A stretch of 64,000 nucleotides of DNA from Nitrosopumilaceae archaeon (GTDB taxonomy: Archaea; Thermoproteota; Nitrososphaeria; Nitrososphaerales; Nitrosopumilaceae): NCBI GenBank assembly GCA_965200155.1, contig CBDATR010000005.1, positions 35,138-99,137 on the forward strand. The letters are read 5' to 3'. The position numbers and the translations under genes were made by a program. The notes below the pieces were generated by a model. It was not told the DNA's origin, made no database searches, and worked only from the letters and a program-made list of their open reading frames with translations. This document shows, piece by piece, positions 1 to 64,000 of this stretch (within the stretch, counting starts at the first letter, position 1; each line of letters begins with the position of its first letter).

Positions 1-152
1 GGCGCGCCTGATAATACGCATGCCCAACAAGTTTGTTCCATGAGAAATACAGTGCTTGCTCTGTCATGATCTTGGCTGGCGCCATGTATTAGTATAGTTT
101 TTTCAGGATTTTTGGTGTTTAGTATATATTCAATCAACGATTATCCTATTCA

Positions 153-1124
153 TTGTCATTTCCAGCACGCCGTCTTCACCGTTTGCGTCGTACCAAAACC
201 ATGAGGCGATTACTCCGGGAGAGCGCCGTTACCGTTGATGATCTGGTCTGTCCAGTATTTGTTGGAGAAGGACTGGAATCCCGTGAGCCCATAGGATCCA
301 TGACGGGAATAGAGCGCATACCTCTGGACATGGTGCGCGACGAGATACTGGATATACGGGATATGGGTATACCTGCTGTTATGCTTTTTGGGATACCACA
401 AAACAAGGACGAGAAGGGAAGCTCCGCGTATGATGATAACGGCATAGTACAGAAGGCCATAGCCGAGTCTCGCAAAGCGACCGATGATATGGTGATAATG
501 GCAGATGTGTGTATGTGTCAGTATACGTCTACGGGTCATTGTGGAATATATGAGGACGGCCGAATAGATAACGACACTTCCATATCATATCTGGGTCGTA
601 TTGCAGCCAGCTACGCAAAAGTTGGTGTAGACGTGGTATCTCCCTCTGCCATGATGGATGGTCAGGTGTCTGCAATCCGTACGCAGTTGGATGATGGTGG
701 CTTTGGGCATGTGGCAATAATGTCGCATACGGCCAAGCACCGTTCCTCCCTGTACTCGCCCTTCCGTGATGCTGCCGACTGTGCCCCAAAATTTGGCGAT
801 CGTCGAAGCTACCAGGTTCCATATACAAACATGCGCGAAGCCATGGCCGAAGTGCAGGCAGATGTGGACGAGGGGGTGGATATAGTAATGATAAAACCGG
901 CGCTACCTTATCTTGATTTGGTAGCTGAGGTAAGGCGGCGATTAGACCTGCCTGTTGCGGCATACAGTGTATCCGGTGAATATGCGCTAGTCCAGGCGGC
1001 GCACAATAATGGCTGGATAGATAAGACTGCTGTTACCCGGGAGATTCTAGGTTCCATAAAACGGGCTGGTGCAGATATTATCATCACCTATTTTGCCAAA
1101 GATATTGCCCGCCTGCTGGATTGA
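153..1124 (+). CDS. hemB: Porphobilinogen synthase (ALA dehydratase)
   Basis: DVCMCQYTSTGHCG zinc site, SPSAMMDG, YSPFRDA, MIKPALPYLD motifs. Confidence 0.97.
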   Translation: MSFPARRLHRLRRTKTMRRLLRESAVTVDDLVCPVFVGEGLESREPIGSMTGIERIPLDMVRDEILDIRDMGIPAVMLFGIPQNKDEKGSSAYDDNGIVQKAIAESRKATDDMVIMADVCMCQYTSTGHCGIYEDGRIDNDTSISYLGRIAASYAKVGVDVVSPSAMMDGQVSAIRTQLDDGGFGHVAIMSHTAKHRSSLYSPFRDAADCAPKFGDRRSYQVPYTNMREAMAEVQADVDEGVDIVMIKPALPYLDLVAEVRRRLDLPVAAYSVSGEYALVQAAHNNGWIDKTAVTREILGSIKRAGADIIITYFAKDIARLLD

Positions 1125-3637: not shown

Positions 3638-3674
3638 TCATTACCTTCTTAATACCTGCTCTGGCCTCTATTAT

Positions 3675-3922
3675 GGAAATTATATACGAAAGTAGCACGG
3701 CAGTAGGACTTTCACTAGAATAATGATTCCAGTCCAGGAATGGCGGCATAGTTACAATAAGTCGTATAACAAGTTCAGCCAGGGAACCGGTTCTATTCCA
3801 TGGAATGGTGAATCATTCTAGTTACGCGTAGCGCCATTCTTGGACTGGAACGGGTTACATTCCATTTTCGTCCCTAGTTGGAGCGATACGCTTCTCCTGT
3901 CCTACGTTCGTATATAATTCCC
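3675..3922 (+). mobile_element. ~248-bp MITE, IS1595 (ISNwi1-like ends), copy 1
   Basis: TIR GGAAATTATATACGAA / TTCGTATATAATTCCC; near-identical copy at 9156-9404. Confidence 0.85.
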
Positions 3923-3968
3923 AATCATCACTAACGCGCACATAAATCTGACCTCGACTCAGCTTTGG

Positions 3969-4444
3969 TATAGCGCCCACCATAACTTCTTGTCCGGTAG
4001 ATGACCGTACTTTTATAGAACAACCACTAGAGTAGAATCACCAGATGACGGATGACATAATTTGGACCGTCATTATACCGTTGAAGAAAAATAAGGAGTT
4101 CTCCCGGCGCGCCAAGATATTTGGTTACACATACGATTACGTGTATAACAGGGGCGGTGTCCGAGATTACGCTGGGCGGTTACTACATACCTGGAACCAC
4201 TCGTGAATTGAAACATGATCCGGCCAAGGTCAAGAATAAGAACGAGTACACCAAGTCACCATACGACCTAAAGAAGGGCGATCCACTTTACGTGAATCAG
4301 CTACCGCGTTCTAGAACGGTTATCAGGGGACGGTTTACCCGTACAACCGGAAGCGTCAGGGTGGGAATAATGGCGACAAGCCAAAGCCATGTGCTGCCCA
4401 GGAACGAGGCATCATATTCTCAATGACTTATGGTGACCGCTATA
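3969..4444 (+). mobile_element. Internally deleted TIR-flanked tnpB element (T1)
   Basis: Ends TATAGCGCCCACCATAA / TTATGGTGACCGCTATA; both halves match the ends of 60464-62109. Confidence 0.85.
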
Positions 4445-8991: not shown

Positions 8992-9155
8992 CGCGCAAGA
9001 CTGCCACCACTCATGATGAACGTCAATAACGAACTACAGAATCATGGAACTACAGGTGGTGAGAAGTGGATGACTGGTGAATAATACATGATTCGCGGTG
9101 TACCTGTTCGCCATGCTGGATTCTGGTTGGATAAGATGGTTGCCACACTTGAGCA

Positions 9156-9404
9156 GGAAATTATATACGAAAGTAGCACTGCAGTAGGGCTTTCACTAGA
9201 ATAATGATTTCCAGTCCAGGAATGGCGGCATAGTTACAATAAGTCGTGTAACAAGTTCAACCAGGGAACCGGTTCTATTCCATGGAATGGTGAATCATTC
9301 TAGTTACGCGTAGCGCCATTCTTGGACTGGAACGGGTTACATTCCATTTTCGTCCCTAGTTGGAGCGATACGCTTCTCCTGTGCTACTTTCGTATATAAT
9401 TCCC
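9156..9404 (+). mobile_element. ~248-bp IS1595-like MITE, copy 2
   Basis: Near-identical to 3675-3922; TIR GGAAATTATATACGAAAGTAGCAC / GTGCTACTTTCGTATATAATTCCC. Confidence 0.85.
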
Positions 9405-9512
9405 TGATGATTGGTACTGTTAGTGTGTGTAATCTAGTGGAGTGAAATCTTACCCCCTGGATTATCTGTTGTATATCCCTACCTTTTAATGGGCAGTGCC
9501 ATATCATAAATT

Positions 9513-18463: not shown

Positions 18464-18572
18464 TCCTGCTAACAACTTTAACCCGGAATGTCGAATATAC
18501 TCCTAAATGGCATGACTTGTCCATTTTCGATCACTTCCTGCTAACAACTTTAACCCGGAATGTCGAATATAC
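18464..18572. repeat. Repeat-spacer-repeat: 37-bp duplication around a 35-bp insert
   Basis: TCCTGCTAACAACTTTAACCCGGAATGTCGAATATAC at 18464-18500 and 18536-18572. Confidence 0.9.
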
Positions 18573-28949: not shown

Positions 28950-29069
28950 GCGGCATAGCCACGGGTCTGTTCTAGCCGCCCAACCATGGGGCGGCATAGC
29001 CACGGGTCTGTTCTAGCCGCCCAACCATGGGGCGGCATAGCCACGGGTCTGTTCTAGCCGCCCAACCAG
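28950..29069. repeat. 41-bp tandem repeat x3 (36-bp GGGGC...GCCCA hairpin + ACCAT)
   Basis: GCGGCATAGCCACGGGTCTGTTCTAGCCGCCCAACCATGGG repeated. Confidence 0.9.
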
Positions 29070-29084
29070 AAAGGCTGGCGCATA

Positions 29085-29176
29085 GTATGAGTTCACCTGT
29101 GTCTAAATTTACGCATAACTAATCGCAACAGTTAATGTGATTTGTGCATAAGATTCCGGAAGACGTGAACTCATAC
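29085..29176 (-). mobile_element. 92-bp MITE
   Basis: TIRs; TSD GGCGCATA. Confidence 0.95.
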
Positions 29177-29280
29177 GGCGCATATCCTGTCCCGACAGAG
29201 TACACATAACGGAATTAATGCCAGCTAGAATGTGCGGCAGTAGTGAGCGGGAATGATTCCAATTGGGTGCGGTAAATAAA

Positions 29281-29374
29281 GGGGGCGGCCATTCCCGCCC
29301 AATGAGGGGGCGGTTTACCCGCCCAATGAGGGGGCTACAAAGTAGCCCAATGAGGGGGCGACCATTCCAGGGCC
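29281..29374. repeat. 24-bp-period array of micro-hairpins with variable loops
   Basis: GCCCAATGAGGGGGC at 29297, 29321, 29345 separated by GGTTTACCC and TACAAAGTA. Confidence 0.85.
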
Positions 29375-30528: not shown

Positions 30529-30620
30529 GTATGAGTTCACCTGTGTCTAAATTTACGCATAACTGATCGCGACAGTTAATGTGATTTGTGCATAAGATTC
30601 CGGAAGACGTGAACTCATAC
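30529..30620 (-). mobile_element. 92-bp MITE without TSD (recombined junction)
   Basis: Flanks differ (CCAAAACC / TTCAAGAG); joins the IS66 remnant to the tnpB remnant. Confidence 0.92.
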
Positions 30621-30858
30621 TTCAAGAGTGGTTCCGGGTATGTAGTAGCCACCAAGACTGATCTCGTATACCGCTCTATTATAGACATAATCGGATGTGT
30701 GACCAAATATCTTGGCGCGCCGGGAGAACTCCTTATCATTCTTCAACGGTATAATGACGGTCCAAATTATGTCATCCATCGTCTGATGATTCTACTCCAG
30801 CAGTGGTTCTATAAAAGTACGGTCCTATACCCGGCAAAGACTTGTGGTGGGCGCTATA
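30621..30858 (-). mobile_element. Left end of TIR-tnpB element (T2), truncated
   Basis: Matches ~61889-62109, including end ACTTGTGGTGGGCGCTATA. Confidence 0.8.
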
Positions 30859-47476: not shown

Positions 47477-47587
47477 GTTGCCACAACCAAAATAGCTCAA
47501 GACCTAAACATCGCGAGTGGCAGTGAAATATATTCGCAATATGCATATGATGTTGCCACAACCAAAATAGCTCAAGACCTAAACATC
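47477..47587. repeat. Repeat-spacer-repeat: 36-bp duplication around a 39-bp insert
   Basis: GTTGCCACAACCAAAATAGCTCAAGACCTAAACATC twice; single in IS481 copies A-C. Confidence 0.92.
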
Positions 47588-58195: not shown

Positions 58196-58967
58196 CAGAA
58201 TAATTCTCCTATTACCTGTTACATAGTATATCAAGGTAATCCATGCATATGGTTCTCGAAAATTCATACACCGAATTTAATCCATGCAGATGATTCCTGG
58301 TATACAAGAACAGGATGGCAATAATTCAGGTCATGCCGGGAGTGTGTGTTTGTCTATATCCACAGGGCGGCTAGCGAGAATACAATTGATGATACGAGTG
58401 TATGGTGGAATATTCCAATGTATCTTGTGAACCCAAAAACTATGGCTGGGAAAATATGCCATACATGAAATGGCGACCGTGATGAGCAAACCAAAGTAAA
58501 ATAATATCGGCTCTAGAGTCACAAGGTATGGGTGGACTAGTCTTGGAAAGTTCGTTTCCTCGCAATGAAGGGGAACTCTGGCATTGCCATCTTGCAAGAG
58601 TATGGGAGTATATTCTGGCTGGTGACGCGTATTGCGTGCAATGTATCTACAACATGTCTACTACACTTTACAGCGATATACTTTTACCAATGGATGGCGT
58701 AGGTTGGCATGCCCAGAGACGCCATATATTTGGGTATGGCAAAAGAGATGCCCCAAAGGTTACAGTATCTTACCAATCGGTGTATTATACACTGCCCGTC
58801 TGTAGCATAGTCATTACCATAATTACTACCCATGATATAGTTGCATATTCATCAATTCATGGCATTTCATCATATACTAGAGGCGGGTCTTGTCTGAGAC
58901 CAAACTGCTGGTGTACTTACCATAAGGTCATACACATGTCGGCGCAGGGTAGATGGGGCAGTGTATC

Positions 58968-60341
58968 ATGATCATACAAGATACATTAAGCCGGGAGGAA
59001 AAGGTACTGTCGCAGAATACTGTGGGGATATACCTTTGCGGTGTAACAGTTTATGATGATTCGCACATAGGTCATGCCCGGACCATTATAGTCTTTGATG
59101 TTCTGCGTCGGTACTTGGAGCATATGGGTCATGCCGTACGTATGATACAGAATTTCACCGACGTGGATGACAAAATCATACAGCGGGCTGCCACGGAAGG
59201 GGCAGAACCCCTTGAGCTGAGCGCCCGGTATATCAACCGGTATCATCAGGACTTTGACGCCCTCAACGTCTTGCGGGCTACCGCCTACCCGCAAGCATCT
59301 GAGCACATAACGCAGATAATCTCGCTTATATCGGAGCTTATAAAGTCGGGTCACGCATATGATGCTAGTTCCGGTGTATACTACTCGGTGGGTTCATTTC
59401 CCCAGTATGGCGTACTGTCTAAGAAGGATATGACCCAGATGCTGGCAGGTTCCCGGGTAGATCTGGAGCATGACAAAAAAGACCCCGCAGACTTTGCTCT
59501 ATGGAAAAAAACCGGAGAACCTCCATTTTGGGATAGTCCGTGGGGGACGGGACGTCCCGGATGGCATATAGAGTGCTCTGCCATGAGCCTTCAATACTTG
59601 GGCAAGCAGTTTGAGATACATGGCGGTGGGAGGGATCTAATATTCCCGCACCATGAGAACGAGATAGCCCAGAATCATGGCTACTCTGGACTTCAGCCCG
59701 CCCATGTCTGGATGCACACGGGAATGGTTACGATATCGGGCCAAAAGATGTCAAAGTCGCTGGGCAATGTCAAGACAGTTAGGACACTATTGTATATGTG
59801 GGGTCCCAACGTACTCCGTCTCTTCTGCCTGTCGGGTCAGTACCAAAAGCCAATAGACTATACCCCTGAATTGCTAACGGAGTCTCTGGCATTGTGGAGG
59901 CGCCTGGAGACGTGCTACCATACACTGGAGCAGACCATTCCAGGAGATGCTGACGGGGATGAAATCTGGCTGGACACATTTGAGAGGCGCCTCTCTGAGG
60001 ACTTGAATACCCATGGCGCCATAGCGACAATGATGGAGATGGCCCGGGAAGTGGGTGAGCGGGCCGCCCGAAAACAGCTGGACGGGGGCATCGCGGCGTC
60101 TTTGCATAAACAGTTACAAAAAATGCTGGGTATTCTTGGATTAGTTGTGGCCCCAATTCCAGACATGGCTAACATGATGAATATGGTTAAGCAGAGAGAG
60201 GAATGCCGCCGGGCTCGAGACTATTCCAGCGCCGACTCCATCCGGGACAAACTAAGGCATGCCAACGTGGAGCTGCTGGATTACCGGGGTCGCACACTGT
60301 TGGTATACCATGAGCCCATACCCGGCGAGAATGCTGTCTGA
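58968..60341 (+). CDS. cysS: Cysteine-tRNA ligase
   Basis: CGVTVY..HIGH, PGWHIECS, FPHHENE, KMSKS. Confidence 0.97.
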   Translation: MIIQDTLSREEKVLSQNTVGIYLCGVTVYDDSHIGHARTIIVFDVLRRYLEHMGHAVRMIQNFTDVDDKIIQRAATEGAEPLELSARYINRYHQDFDALNVLRATAYPQASEHITQIISLISELIKSGHAYDASSGVYYSVGSFPQYGVLSKKDMTQMLAGSRVDLEHDKKDPADFALWKKTGEPPFWDSPWGTGRPGWHIECSAMSLQYLGKQFEIHGGGRDLIFPHHENEIAQNHGYSGLQPAHVWMHTGMVTISGQKMSKSLGNVKTVRTLLYMWGPNVLRLFCLSGQYQKPIDYTPELLTESLALWRRLETCYHTLEQTIPGDADGDEIWLDTFERRLSEDLNTHGAIATMMEMAREVGERAARKQLDGGIAASLHKQLQKMLGILGLVVAPIPDMANMMNMVKQREECRRARDYSSADSIRDKLRHANVELLDYRGRTLLVYHEPIPGENAV

Positions 60342-60524
60342 GTGTGAACGCAAACCCCATTGCCCTGCTCTGGTCAACTGAAGCTGGCATAGCTTGTTGA
60401 CAGAATATCCCCCAACTCCAGAAAAACACTGTATACATTTTGGCACTTCCGCACTATTGTACATATAGCGGTCACCATAAGTCTTTGAGAACATGGCACC
60501 TCGTTCCTAGACAGTACATGGCTT

Positions 60525-60616
60525 GTATGAGTTCACGTCTTCCGGAATCTTGTGCACAAATCACATTAACTGTCGCGATCAGTTGTGCGTAAATTTAGAC
60601 ACAGGTGAACTCATAC
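60525..60616 (+). mobile_element. 92-bp MITE
   Basis: TIRs; TSD CATGGCTT. Confidence 0.95.
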
Positions 60617-61296
60617 CATGGCTTTGGATTGTCACCATTATTCCCGCCCTGACGCCTCCGGACGACACGCTCTGCCGCCCCATACAGGGAAACCAGTTAC
60701 TAAACGCCGCGTTGATATCGGCGTGAAATTCCTGGTTACATATTGAAAGTGTCACTAGTTGATCGTGATTTGTCGTCAACGTGTCCACACACGTGACGGG
60801 TCTGGCTTGTGTATTTCGCCGGCACAGCCGCAAATTCAATCCCCAGTGCCTCGCACTTTTGTACTACTTTCCGGCGGAACTCGCCTACCCGGTTCTCGCG
60901 CATGGAGCGGTTCATTGTTATTTTGTGGTTCCCGCCATTACTGGTCATTGATATCGGCGATAAATCATCTAGTACTACCTTGCCCACACCTTTGGTGACC
61001 GCGTGGACTATTCTATTCGTGGAGTCGTTCGCAATGTTGTTGGCTTTCTGTCGTAATTGAGTGACTTGTTTCTCGATCTTTCGCTTCCTGCGCTTACCTT
61101 TTCGCGTTCTAATACTCTGGAGTGAGATAATCTCCCGCAATATGGAACGATGTATCATGTTATGAATAATCGTTCTACCATTCGTGTAAGCTGTTACAGC
61201 TAGATGTTTCCCGCCGACATCCACGCCGCGAACAACGCTGGTTGGTACATGTTTTGGTGGTTTCTCCCGTATATTGATGTGAATCTCGAATTGACG

Positions 61297-61409
61297 CTCC
61301 CTACTATTGGTTACTCGTTCCACTATCTTGAATGTACCTTGTCAAATACAAAGAATTCTACCTCAGGACCCCTCCCTACTATTGGTTACTCGTTCCACTA
61401 TCTTGAATG
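61297..61409. repeat. Repeat-spacer-repeat: 38-bp duplication around a 37-bp insert
   Basis: CTCCCTACTATTGGTTACTCGTTCCACTATCTTGAATG twice. Confidence 0.92.
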
Positions 61410-61637
61410 AGTGCATGTCCAAGGAACGATCGATTATTTTGGTTGTTCTCACCATACCAATACCCGGCAGGTATAGTTCGCGAGAACCGCGCCTTATCGG
61501 CGGACTCACACATTACTCTATCATTGTCACGCCGGTGTGGTATGTAATTAGAATGATCCTCGTACGCCCGCCTGCACGCGACAGACGCCTGTAATATGGC
61601 ACTTCGGCCATAGTTAGAGGGTAACTCGCGCACCCAC

Positions 61638-61747
61638 TCCAGATCAGGGCGCCACTTTGTCAATTCCAGGAACAAATATTCCGGTACACCAGCGGCCTGA
61701 ACGGCTCTATCCAGATCAGGGCGCCACTTTGTCAATTCCAGGAACAA
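61638..61747. repeat. Repeat-spacer-repeat: 38-bp duplication around a 34-bp insert
   Basis: TCCAGATCAGGGCGCCACTTTGTCAATTCCAGGAACAA twice. Confidence 0.92.
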
Positions 61748-62237
61748 GCCATTCTTGTTGGACTGGTAAATCGTCCCCTGATAGCCGTTCTAGAATGCGG
61801 TAGCTGATTCACGTATAATGAATCACAGACCATATGATGACTTGGCGGACTCGTTCTTATTCTTGACCTTGGCCGGATCATGCTTCAATTCAAGAGTGGT
61901 TCCGGGTATGTAACAACCACCCAGCGTGATCTCGGACACCGCCCTGTCATATACGTAATCGGATGTGTGTCCAAATATCTTGGCGCGCCGGGAGAATTCA
62001 CTATTATTTTTCAACAGTATAACGACAGTCCGAATTATGTCCTCCATCATATGGTGGTTCTATAAAAGTACGGTCCTATACCTGGCAAAGACTTATGGTG
62101 GGCGCTATACGAGGCAGGGATTGCGTACGACAAATGTAGAATCTGATAGTTGTTATATCATACCCGTCACCCATTTCCTGGCCTTTGGGCTTGATGCATT
62201 GACGGCGCAATACTTCCCTGAAAGGCAGGTCACGCCA

Positions 62238-63143
62238 TTATAGGGATTTCTTGATTCGGTCCATGATCATTTTTCTTTGTCGTTCTCTTATGGCCTGCCT
62301 TGTCTCTTTGGGATGCAGTGAGTAGTAACCGGTCTCATTCGGCCTATACATAACATAAGCCCACAGCATATTCAATACGCCTCTCTTGCTTATTCCCGAC
62401 CTGTGCAGTAATAAACTGGCACACCGATAAAGCACAAATAATGGATGATAGTCCATGGCTCGCATTGCCTGGCCCCACTCATAAAAGCCGTGGCTGTGGC
62501 CAAGCTGGTCTATATGTTCGTACGTGATGTCGTTCCAGACTTTAACTGAATAACCCCCGTCAAGCGCCCTGTGAATTATTACTGACTCGTACCCGACTAT
62601 TTCTGGACATTTCTCAAAATTCTCAAAAAACCACTCCTGTTTCACGACTCTTCCCGCCCCGTGTGGTGACATTGATTCTGTATCACCGTGATTCCCGCTT
62701 GCTATCACGATTCTTGGGTTCTTTTCCATGCGCTCAATGATTCGTTCCGTATAATTATGCCCCAGTATGGAATCCCCACTAACAATCAGGTGATACCCGA
62801 ATGATTTGTCCCAGCACATGTTCCACAATCTGGGTAATCTGGAATAATCACGTGTCTTGCTACCCGTTTGTATGACTTGAATGATATCCGGGTAACTCGT
62901 TCTGAACGATTCCAGTATCTCGCCTGTTCCATCGGTTGAGCCATCCTCAACAACAATGATCTTGCCCGGCTTTAGAGTCTGGTTCACCAGACTGTCCATT
63001 ACCATTCCAATAGTTCTCTTGCAATCCCGGACTGGTAGTATACAGTAGTAACCCCTCCCCCCCGTCATGGGATATCGGCACCGTAGTTCCTTAAAATGTA
63101 TTGTAATGGATTTTGCTCCTGATTCATTCGTGCGATAATCCAT
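62238..63143 (-). CDS. Glycosyltransferase family 2
   Basis: ILPVRD, IIVVEDGSTDGT; true start may be ATG 63068. Confidence 0.88.
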   Translation of the reverse strand: MDYRTNESGAKSITIHFKELRCRYPMTGGRGYYCILPVRDCKRTIGMVMDSLVNQTLKPGKIIVVEDGSTDGTGEILESFRTSYPDIIQVIQTGSKTRDYSRLPRLWNMCWDKSFGYHLIVSGDSILGHNYTERIIERMEKNPRIVIASGNHGDTESMSPHGAGRVVKQEWFFENFEKCPEIVGYESVIIHRALDGGYSVKVWNDITYEHIDQLGHSHGFYEWGQAMRAMDYHPLFVLYRCASLLLHRSGISKRGVLNMLWAYVMYRPNETGYYSLHPKETRQAIRERQRKMIMDRIKKSL

Positions 63144-63253
63144 GATATAAGACCGCGCCTTCCCTAATCACGCGATCCGTAGTGCGTGAATTTAGACTTC
63201 GGTGAACTTGTACAATTTTCGCATACTGCAAAATATTGTTCCCACAGTGTATG

Positions 63254-64000
63254 TCATTTAGTAGATGGCCGTGCCATATCTCGCAATATGCGGGGCAGTC
63301 TGGCCAGGTCGTAATTGGCAGGCAACCCGTACCGGTCATCCCCATATCCTTCACGAAAGGCATATCCGCCCAGAATAACAGGAACCCCACATCTGTCCGA
63401 TAATTTATCTGCCAACCGCCTTGCCGAGGAGCGATTGTCATCTAAGGAGGTAGATATCATGACCACATGTGGCTTGTGTCTGCTTACAAAGGAGAGTATA
63501 TCACTTGTAGGTGCAGGACCTGCCAGATTGTATACTGTAAAGCCGTGACCTGATAGATACAACTCCATAACGTCACAACCCATACGGTGCTTCTCGCCGG
63601 GCGGAATACATAACAGAATTTTAATCCGGGTGGCTTTCTTGGAGTTGTCTTTCATGAGCATCTTGATCATACTTAGTGCAGTGTTGCTGGCAATGTGCTC
63701 GGTTGCTATATCTATCTGACCATCTTCCCACTCCTGGCCTATACGATGCAATACCGGCCGCAATATCAATTCAAAGAATTCAGCATTACGCCTCAAGGAC
63801 TTTACCACCTGCTCATATATTTTCATGACACCGTCCAGATCACCGTGTGTCAGGGAGTTGTATGCAGCATCCCGCGTATCGCCGGTCACATGAGACCGGC
63901 TTCCGCTCTTGGAGCCAAAAAAGTTCACTATATGCTCGTTTCTGTACTCCTCCGGCACATCCTGTAGTGTGACTCCGGAGGCGTTGCCCAGATATTTTAC
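63254..64000 (-). CDS. Cobalamin-binding domain protein (5' end beyond window)
   Basis: W-x9-EH and GEKHRMG motifs; frame open to the window edge. Confidence 0.88.
   Translation of the reverse strand, partial: VKYLGNASGVTLQDVPEEYRNEHIVNFFGSKSGSRSHVTGDTRDAAYNSLTHGDLDGVMKIYEQVVKSLRRNAEFFELILRPVLHRIGQEWEDGQIDIATEHIASNTALSMIKMLMKDNSKKATRIKILLCIPPGEKHRMGCDVMELYLSGHGFTVYNLAGPAPTSDILSFVSRHKPHVVMISTSLDDNRSSARRLADKLSDRCGVPVILGGYAFREGYGDDRYGLPANYDLARLPRILRDMARPSTK

Follow-up and report, generated by a model that had tools for sequence, protein, structure and literature searches.

A decayed tnpB element between IS630-type ends in a Nitrosopumilaceae archaeon, probably mobilized in trans by a DDE transposase

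The stretch of DNA analyzed here (the window) comprises 64,000 nucleotides (nt) of a sponge-associated Nitrosopumilaceae archaeon (C5:35138-99137) and belongs to a 2.38-Mb assembly of 51 contigs that is 87.6% complete. At positions 60464-62109 it carries an element with inverted ends, the sole gene of which is tnpB. In our assessment, at a probability of about three in four, this element is the fossil of a non-autonomous cut-and-paste element of the IS630/Tc1-mariner type that was moved in trans by an IS630-family DDE transposase. A first-pass annotation, made from the letters alone, had proposed a TnpB passenger moved in this way, and the proposal is supported by IS630 ends shared with other elements of the genome, by duplication of the target dinucleotide TA, and by the failure to find Y1 or serine transposases in the assembly. 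Throughout the text, G000 denotes the source genome and G001, G005, and G006 denote sister genomes of the same genus, while C, L, and P precede the numbers of contigs, loci, and proteins, respectively.

The two arms of the element (60464-60487 and 62086-62109) are 24 nt long each and complementary at 22 of 24 positions (92%). Either end starts with TATAGCG, and the outermost TA on each side (left copy 60464-60465, right copy 62108-62109) is the presumed target duplication, as judged from the sequence, the counts of end flanks, and the empty sites described below. The terminal inverted repeats (TIRs), defined by end matches and arm pairing, occupy 60466-60487 on the plus strand at the tnpB 3' end (TAGCGGTCACCATAAGTCTTTG) and 62086-62107 on the minus strand at the tnpB 5' end (TAGCGCCCACCATAAGTCTTTG). 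When up to three mismatches were allowed, the 24-mer end matched the window at four places, namely both arms, 4421-4444, and 30835-30858; none of 100 dinucleotide-preserving shuffles of the window contained any match. The matches outside the element belong to two relatives already recognized in the first-pass annotation by their ends. T1 (3969-4444, plus strand), identified by end matches and BLAST, is an internal-deletion derivative that keeps the two ends and the TA on either side, and T2 (30621-30858, minus strand) is a fragment of the 5' end of a tnpB element, with one end only, cut by a 92-bp miniature inverted-repeat transposable element (MITE) at 30531-30620. T1 retains element positions 1-198 (minus the MITE nested there in the window element, which is absent from T1 at the corresponding spot) and 1294-1646, that is, ~350 nt on one side and ~106-123 nt on the other; the latter value replaces the ~150 bp previously given for its 3' segment. 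The earlier statement that the ends enclose only tnpB holds for the gene content, but the gene is a pseudogene, and the ends also enclose a nested 92-bp MITE and two repeat-insert-repeat units. The MITE (60525-60616; sequence and BLAST) has ends GTATGAGTTCAC and is flanked by the 8-bp duplication CATGGCTT at 60517-60524 and 60617-60624.

The element is a member of a family that expanded within this genome. BLAST of the element against G000 returned 769 alignments, 613 of them within the MITE part only, and the remaining ones formed 55 loci, including the window copy, the two sources of the inserts, and 13 further loci of 1.3-1.6 kb touching both ends. The family ends are of the TAGCGGTCACCATAAGTC type. 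A 20-nt end pattern (up to four mismatches) gave 140 genome matches, and opposed end pairs were spaced by ~91 bp, ~0.5 kb, 1-1.3 kb, ~1.5 kb (tnpB), and ~2 kb (IS630-like). The 18-nt core of the end matched G000 91 times, compared with 0-1 matches per genome in nine further members of the genus. Independently of this family, the 92-bp MITE (8-bp duplication) accounts for its 613 BLAST matches in 2.38 Mb and lies nested in both tnpB and IS630-like elements.

IS630-type elements with the same TIRs, which the first-pass annotation had suggested looking for, are present in the genome. The best example, C13:13691-15735 (~2 kb), has ends TATAGCGGCC.../TATAGCAGTC..., contains three nested MITEs, and has broken frames that match DDE_3 weakly (18-25 bits; best 25.1, cut-off 28.6); at least eight further fragments of this element share the ends, all of them broken. 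A word-based homolog search with a 142-amino-acid (aa) piece of the IS630-like product, confined to longer proteins, returned none, and phmmer afterwards found relatives: 30 matches at E <= 0.001 among 1.84 billion representative proteins. The best full-length match, P0003 (358 aa), showed 43% identity (E 5.9e-22), and all five full-length matches tested carried a helix-turn-helix (HTH) domain and DDE_3 above cut-off. Because these relatives carry HTH and DDE_3, we assign the end-sharing ~2-kb elements to decayed IS630-family insertion sequences. Neither Y1 transposases (PF01797) nor serine recombinases (PF00239), either of which within the same ends would speak for another mode of transposition, gave any match in the 87.6%-complete assembly. 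Sister genome G005 contains an intact IS630-family transposase (L061:999-2024, 342 aa, DDE_3 E 4e-21) nested in one of its tnpB elements; it was considered as the missing partner and rejected, as it had no tblastn match in G000.

The choice of target points to the same transposase family. Among 123 ends scored with a pattern from which TA had been omitted, 111 are preceded by TA, compared with a genomic TA frequency of 6.7%, and the bases from position -3 outward are random (at -3: A 33, G 35, T 25, and C 30 of 123). The joined flanks of 38 end pairs, extracted by script, were compared with the genome, and two independent insertions were readable. The first is a ~91-bp mini-element within a ~125-bp repeat family, six empty paralogs of which read CACA-[TA, CA or TG]-TGCC, as opposed to CACA-TG-[element]-TA-TGCC in the filled state. 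The second, C35:24047-25240, has TA on each side, and its paralog C9:1041-1153 has two bases (GT) in their place. Both comparisons, between paralogous sites, give 2 nt in the empty state and 2 nt per side in the filled state and fit a 2-bp TA duplication, as predicted in the first-pass annotation. The ~125-bp repeat family (…CCTCACATATGCCCATGAATT…; C10:35893-35983, C24:341723-341813, and ~25 paralogs) supplied the empty sites of the first comparison. Three other joined-flank matches (C10:40509, C13:13691, and C31:34513) were rejected as not readable as empty sites. When window positions 59264-63309 were compared with 31 genomes (G000 and 30 relatives), conservation was limited to the cysS flank, none of the genomes showed a contiguous empty site, and no contig of four public runs joins the flanks. 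DNA-type contigs of runs X1 and X2 end inside the element ends (~60492 and ~62078).

The tnpB remnant occupies 60619-62050 on the minus strand and was delimited by Pfam and tblastn. Its piece at 60736-61323 scored 33 bits with PF07282 (Cas12f1-like_TNB; cut-off 26.3) and 30.4 bits with PF01385 (OrfB_IS605; cut-off 30.5), and the tnpB fragment at another locus (L014) scored 40.2 and 35.1 bits, respectively. With an intact 450-aa relative as the tblastn query, residues 1-425 were covered in two frames of the window copy, which is interrupted by stops close to the N-terminus and shifts frame near 61500; its zinc ribbon is cut by a premature stop, D stands at the position of the RuvC-II glutamate, and the frame breaks ahead of the third RuvC D. 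The window tnpB is a pseudogene. Open tnpB frames reach at most 307 aa among eight full-length copies examined (L011-L018), compared with 450-453 aa in intact relatives. In an alignment of four such relatives with this 307-aa fragment (A1), the RuvC residues D223, E309, and D395 and the motif CxxC..CxxC are invariant, and RuvC and zinc-ribbon residues remain legible in several of the genome's own copies. A six-frame search of the genus revealed intact homologs in G005 (45 matches, frames mostly of 440-493 aa), G006, and G001; identity between the 307-aa fragment and the G005 protein is 45% in A1 and 48-54% over the six-frame matches. When one genome of each species was scanned, every close relative lay in a contig titled Nitrosopumilaceae archaeon or Cenarchaeum sp.; the next-nearest matches came from Nitrosopumilus (29% identity), followed by Thorarchaeota.

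Downstream of the tnpB frame, the segment 60488-60735 (minus strand), split by the nested MITE, is the candidate scaffold of an omega-RNA, the guide RNA of TnpB. The last ~250 nt of the element are conserved in 21 of the genome's own copies, and the 3' region is homologous to its counterparts in G005, G006, and G001, being alignable to ~60 nt from the end. RNAalifold predicted 26 pairs in five helices, nine of the 26 with compensatory changes, a number of covarying pairs reached by 37 of 500 shuffles. The covariation score was 0.397 compared with 0.188 in shuffles (0 of 500 reached it), and 97.9% of pairing cells were compatible with the structure compared with 86.6% in shuffles and 35-53% when partners were slid, all values being computed on the alignment from which the structure was derived and to which only about three lineages contribute. 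Helices 3-5 are retained in T1, and a search of five copy-bearing loci against Rfam gave no match at E <= 1. With helices apparently maintained by compensatory changes, the earlier suggestion that this segment is an omega-RNA scaffold is credible on the basis of modeled folding.

In the sister genomes G005, G006, and G001, tnpB of the same clade is again the sole cargo, with different ends (GGGAATTATATAC...). The G005 elements have inverted ends of 23-31 nt and AT-rich 8-bp duplications such as ATTTTAAA, TTAAGAAC, and TAAGAATT; ~20 of them are intact solo-tnpB elements of ~1.47 kb with perfect 8-bp duplications (e.g., L032:1367-2838; in G006, e.g., L042), and their intact frames encode 450-453 aa. 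IS1595 elements produce 8-bp duplications, and IS1595-family transposase genes (PF12762, E ~1e-41) were found in all four genomes searched. One IS1595-family element of G005 (L169:266-2396) has 24-nt ends starting with GGGAATTATA and the 8-bp duplication AAAATTAT, another (L165) has 13 terminal nt in common with the tnpB elements, and more generally a tip of 10-13 nt and the 8-bp duplication are common to IS1595-family and sister tnpB elements. Judging by these shared tips, IS1595-family elements are the likely partner of the G005 and G006 tnpB elements. Two other candidates for this role were discarded: rve-family genes, near which only single end-like matches lay, with no second end or duplication, and IS66-family elements, the end motif being absent from eight loci. 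A second TnpB lineage (L071), 32% identical, uses similar ends. In the window itself, two ~250-bp MITEs (3674-3923 and 9154-9406; at least five genome copies) have 33-34-nt inverted ends GG(A/G)AATTATATACGAAAGTAGCAC, the tip of which is that of the sister-genome tnpB elements.

Because the sister genomes hold the same clade within other ends, and with ~20 intact, recent-looking copies on IS1595-like tips, the IS630 ends appear to be secondary. We conclude from these comparisons that the clade usually resides on IS1595-like ends and would have gained IS630-type ends in G000, the direction of this exchange being the one we infer. At somewhat less than an even chance, a single tnpB/omega-RNA cassette would have switched between two unrelated DDE end systems within one genus; in that case the nuclease and its guide would form a transferable passenger that any cut-and-paste element could take up, guide capture would operate at inverted-repeat ends that produce target duplications, and a rule for the target-adjacent motif (TAM) other than that of IS605 would be required.

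According to the proposed history, a tnpB cassette with its 3' omega-RNA scaffold would have been captured between IS630 ends, giving an element with inverted ends of 22-24 nt, tnpB and the scaffold as sole cargo, and no transposase inside, which inserted at TA with duplication of TA. Separate elements of the same genome with the same ends would have supplied the IS630-family DDE transposase in trans, acting on these ends; the family would have expanded to ~14 full-length copies, accompanied by deletion derivatives and by MITEs of ~91 bp, before it decayed along with its partner. A further step is offered tentatively, by analogy with TnpB of IS200/IS605: TnpB, with an RNA read from the 3' end into the flank, may have cut emptied donor sites, and repair would then have re-copied the element. 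What carries the proposal is directly observed, namely the ends common to both element types, TA next to them, a duplication of 2 bp, the absence of any other transposase inside the ends, and the IS630 identity of the partner. Mobilization itself is a reconstructed past event and not a demonstrated activity, since every tnpB and IS630 copy seen is broken.

Several observations weigh against this history. The empty sites are diverged paralogs (~70-85% identical) and not pre-insertion alleles, and one filled site reads TG...TA and not TA...TA. Likeness between the tnpB and IS630-like elements is confined to ~24-26 terminal nt, and no TIR pair in the genome encloses tnpB together with a transposase. 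The assembly yielded no intact tnpB of this family and no intact IS630-type transposase. Parts of the element recur in contigs from the RNA libraries X6 and X7, and contigs as such cannot show transcription. A TA-only target offers no obvious fixed TAM beside the guide, which makes homing by TnpB hard to account for at ends of this kind. That all copies are dead is likewise compatible with a capture that happened by accident and brought the element no benefit.

The last point leads to the rival account that survives best, although we consider it unlikely: a tnpB cassette came by accident to lie between a pair of IS630-type ends, or was enclosed by a newly forming IS630 MITE, and was then copied as useless cargo, neither TnpB nor its RNA ever serving the element. 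Every copy seen is a pseudogene, the same clade sits in other ends in the sister genomes, which makes the IS630 ends secondary, and the TA target comes without a fixed TAM, all of which suit such a capture. However, ~14 full-length copies arose before decay, RuvC and zinc-ribbon residues can still be read in several of them, the 3' structure is conserved across lineages, and comparable associations are recurrent and mobile in the available text of the literature (PMC10691335). Movement by another DDE family (e.g., IS5, IS1380, or IS1595), in which case TA would belong to the inverted repeat or to a duplication of more than 2 bp (TNA, CTAG, or 8 bp), is far less probable still. IS1595- and IS66-family transposases do occur in G000, but the bases beyond TA are random, empty and filled sites differ by 2 nt, the end-sharing elements encode IS630-type DDE_3 remnants, and IS1595-type elements differ in their tips (GGGAATTATA) and in duplicating 8 bp. 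An ordinary solo tnpB of the IS200/IS605 (IS1341) group, moved by Y1 TnpA through peel-and-paste with coincidental inverted ends, would agree with the Pfam domains of this TnpB, which are those of IS605 OrfB, and with solo tnpB elements being the commonest form in the accessible part of one survey (10.1101/2023.03.14.532601), but it is close to refuted by the lack of Y1_Tnp matches in the genome, by symmetrical 24-nt ends common to DDE_3 elements and tiny MITEs, and by TA at both ends.

Comparison with known systems shows how far the arrangement is familiar. IS200/IS605 elements lack inverted ends, produce no duplication, and are moved by Y1 TnpA; their IS1341-type solo tnpB forms resemble the present element in combining tnpB with an omega-RNA scaffold (here a candidate) overlapping its 3' end and in having no transposase inside, and they differ from it in that here there are inverted ends and TA duplication, and no Y1 was found. 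The sister solo-tnpB elements of G005, G006, and G001 share with the window element the TnpB clade, a homologous 3' region of the putative RNA, and solo cargo between inverted ends; in contrast to it, they have GGGAATTATATAC... ends, an 8-bp duplication, IS1595-shared tips, intact frames, and ~20 copies in G005.

Closest in the literature are the TnpBs linked to DDE transposases. In its available text, the survey of Altae-Tran et al. (2023; PMC10691335) describes a TnpB branch tied to IS630 DDE transposases and an HTH protein within symmetrical ends ('DDE-6'), inverted ends in all six DDE-associated TnpB groups, and solo TnpBs whose ends hardly differ from those of systems with a transposase, which suggests mobilization in trans; it also proposes IS630/DDE-linked TnpBs as a link to Fanzors. 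Our element is like the IS630-linked and solo TnpBs described there in having tnpB within symmetrical IS630-type ends shared, in solo forms, with transposase-bearing elements, and the tnpB 3' end less than 250 bp from the transposon end. Unlike DDE-6, as far as the accessible text characterizes it, the present case includes no element with both genes and no separate HTH gene that we could see, its host belongs to the Nitrosopumilaceae, and all copies are decayed. Fanzors are reported, in the part of the source available, both in autonomous Mariner/Tc1 elements and in non-autonomous ones that retain only the ends (PMC10530073). Fanzor1 (PMC3627910, PMC10530073), as outlined in these sources, likewise combines a TnpB-family nuclease and a structured 3' RNA, predicted in the present case, as passenger in inverted-end, target-duplicating elements; its hosts are eukaryotes and giant viruses, whereas the nearest relatives found here are archaeal, and the likeness considered is that of arrangement. 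The principle of mobilization in trans is already known, because PMC10691335 reports it in its available text. What is new is the host lineage, the arrangement in separate elements, the complete series of decay, and the exchange of ends inside a single genus; the element is a good example and introduces no new principle.

The two repeat-insert-repeat units within the tnpB pseudogene belong to a second phenomenon. In the first (61297-61409), two exact 38-nt copies enclose a 37-nt insert (61335-61371) identical to C10:308550-308586, which we read from its translation as a glutamine synthetase-like frame. The second (61638-61747), in frame, has an exact 38-nt duplication and a 34-nt insert (61676-61709) identical to C34:112405-112438, read in the same manner as a purQ-like frame. 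The window holds further units at 18464-18572 and 47477-47587. The genome carries a CRISPR array at C9:71011-92014 with 285 spacers, mostly of 35-39 nt, and a 36-nt repeat, adjoined by a Cas4g/Cas1g fusion (NF049935, 710.7 bits, cut-off 560; type I-G) and cas2. A tnpB remnant near this cas locus, distinct from the window copy, was the only one tested against NCBIfam guided_TnpB.

Beyond the array, we counted 50 isolated units with exact duplications. The duplication is 36-37 nt long in 37 of them, the insert 34-39 nt in 47, and the unit length (repeat plus insert) 71-78 nt in all 50. When up to five mismatches per 36 were allowed, 75 units fell at spacings of 71-75, compared with 40 across 31 neighboring spacing bins together. 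Half of the inserts (25 of 50) have a second match in their own genome, mostly full-length and near-identical; 12 of the 22 with a unique source derive from contig C10, which makes up 23% of the assembly. By comparison, a single one of the 285 array spacers has an own-genome match, and that match is an isolated unit. No clear protospacer-adjacent motif or target motif emerged for the isolated units. Two target sequences, CTTGTAATGTGCAAGATCTTTCTTGGTAGACGCAAG and CTATTACTGAGACTGGCAATGAAACGATTCGGCGCC, recur with different inserts, and these sites may be either hot spots of the same process or small repeat-borne arrays of their own; loci with recurrent targets are C10:83012, C24:460667, C24:500916/500987, C13:35858, C34:161231, and C34:37402. 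At C9:70400-70590 (L078:1323-1510), two self-derived inserts and three copies of their 37-nt target separate the stop of cas4/cas1 from the start of cas2, leaving both genes intact and ~148 bp apart.

The duplications have the length of the resident repeat, the inserts have the length of spacers, and cas1 and cas2 are present. On this geometry, ectopic integration by the resident Cas1-Cas2 is the most likely origin of the isolated units. The source study of off-target spacer integration is reportedly that of Nivala, Shipman and Church from 2018. Such 'neo-CRISPR' integration is described, in the available text of two later accounts (10.1101/148544, PMC7054753), for E. coli over-producing Cas1-Cas2. 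As described there, it likewise involves an insert of spacer length and a repeat-length duplication of non-CRISPR DNA, and it differs in that it concerns over-production in E. coli, in contrast to ~50 natural units in one type I-G archaeal genome.

The surroundings of the tnpB element can be described briefly. It lies between a cysS-like frame (58953-60341), the 3' end of which faces the element, and a converging 301-aa frame (62238-63143, minus strand) that we read as a glycosyltransferase. A further copy of the 92-bp MITE lies at 29087-29175, in addition to the one at 30531-30620 that cuts T2 and ends at 30620, and short tandem and interspersed repeats (ccacgggtctgttctagccgcccaacca…; gggggcgg…cccgcccaatgag…) at 29000-29360 lie beside MITE copies.

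The tnpB family described here offers an archaeal case of TnpB on a DDE transposon in which the partner, a deletion series, and MITEs are found in one genome. The intact copies in G005 and G006 would provide a route to the function of guide and TAM at inverted, target-duplicating ends, a question that bears on the origin of Fanzors. The spacer-like units may outweigh the tnpB finding in importance. If ~50 fresh ectopic integrations, half of them from the cell's own DNA, are the work of Cas1-Cas2, the CRISPR integrase would act as a mutagen in this archaeon on an unusual scale, and the proportion of self-derived inserts (1 of 285 in the array compared with 25 of 50 in isolated units) would point to a strong exclusion of self-derived spacers from the working array.

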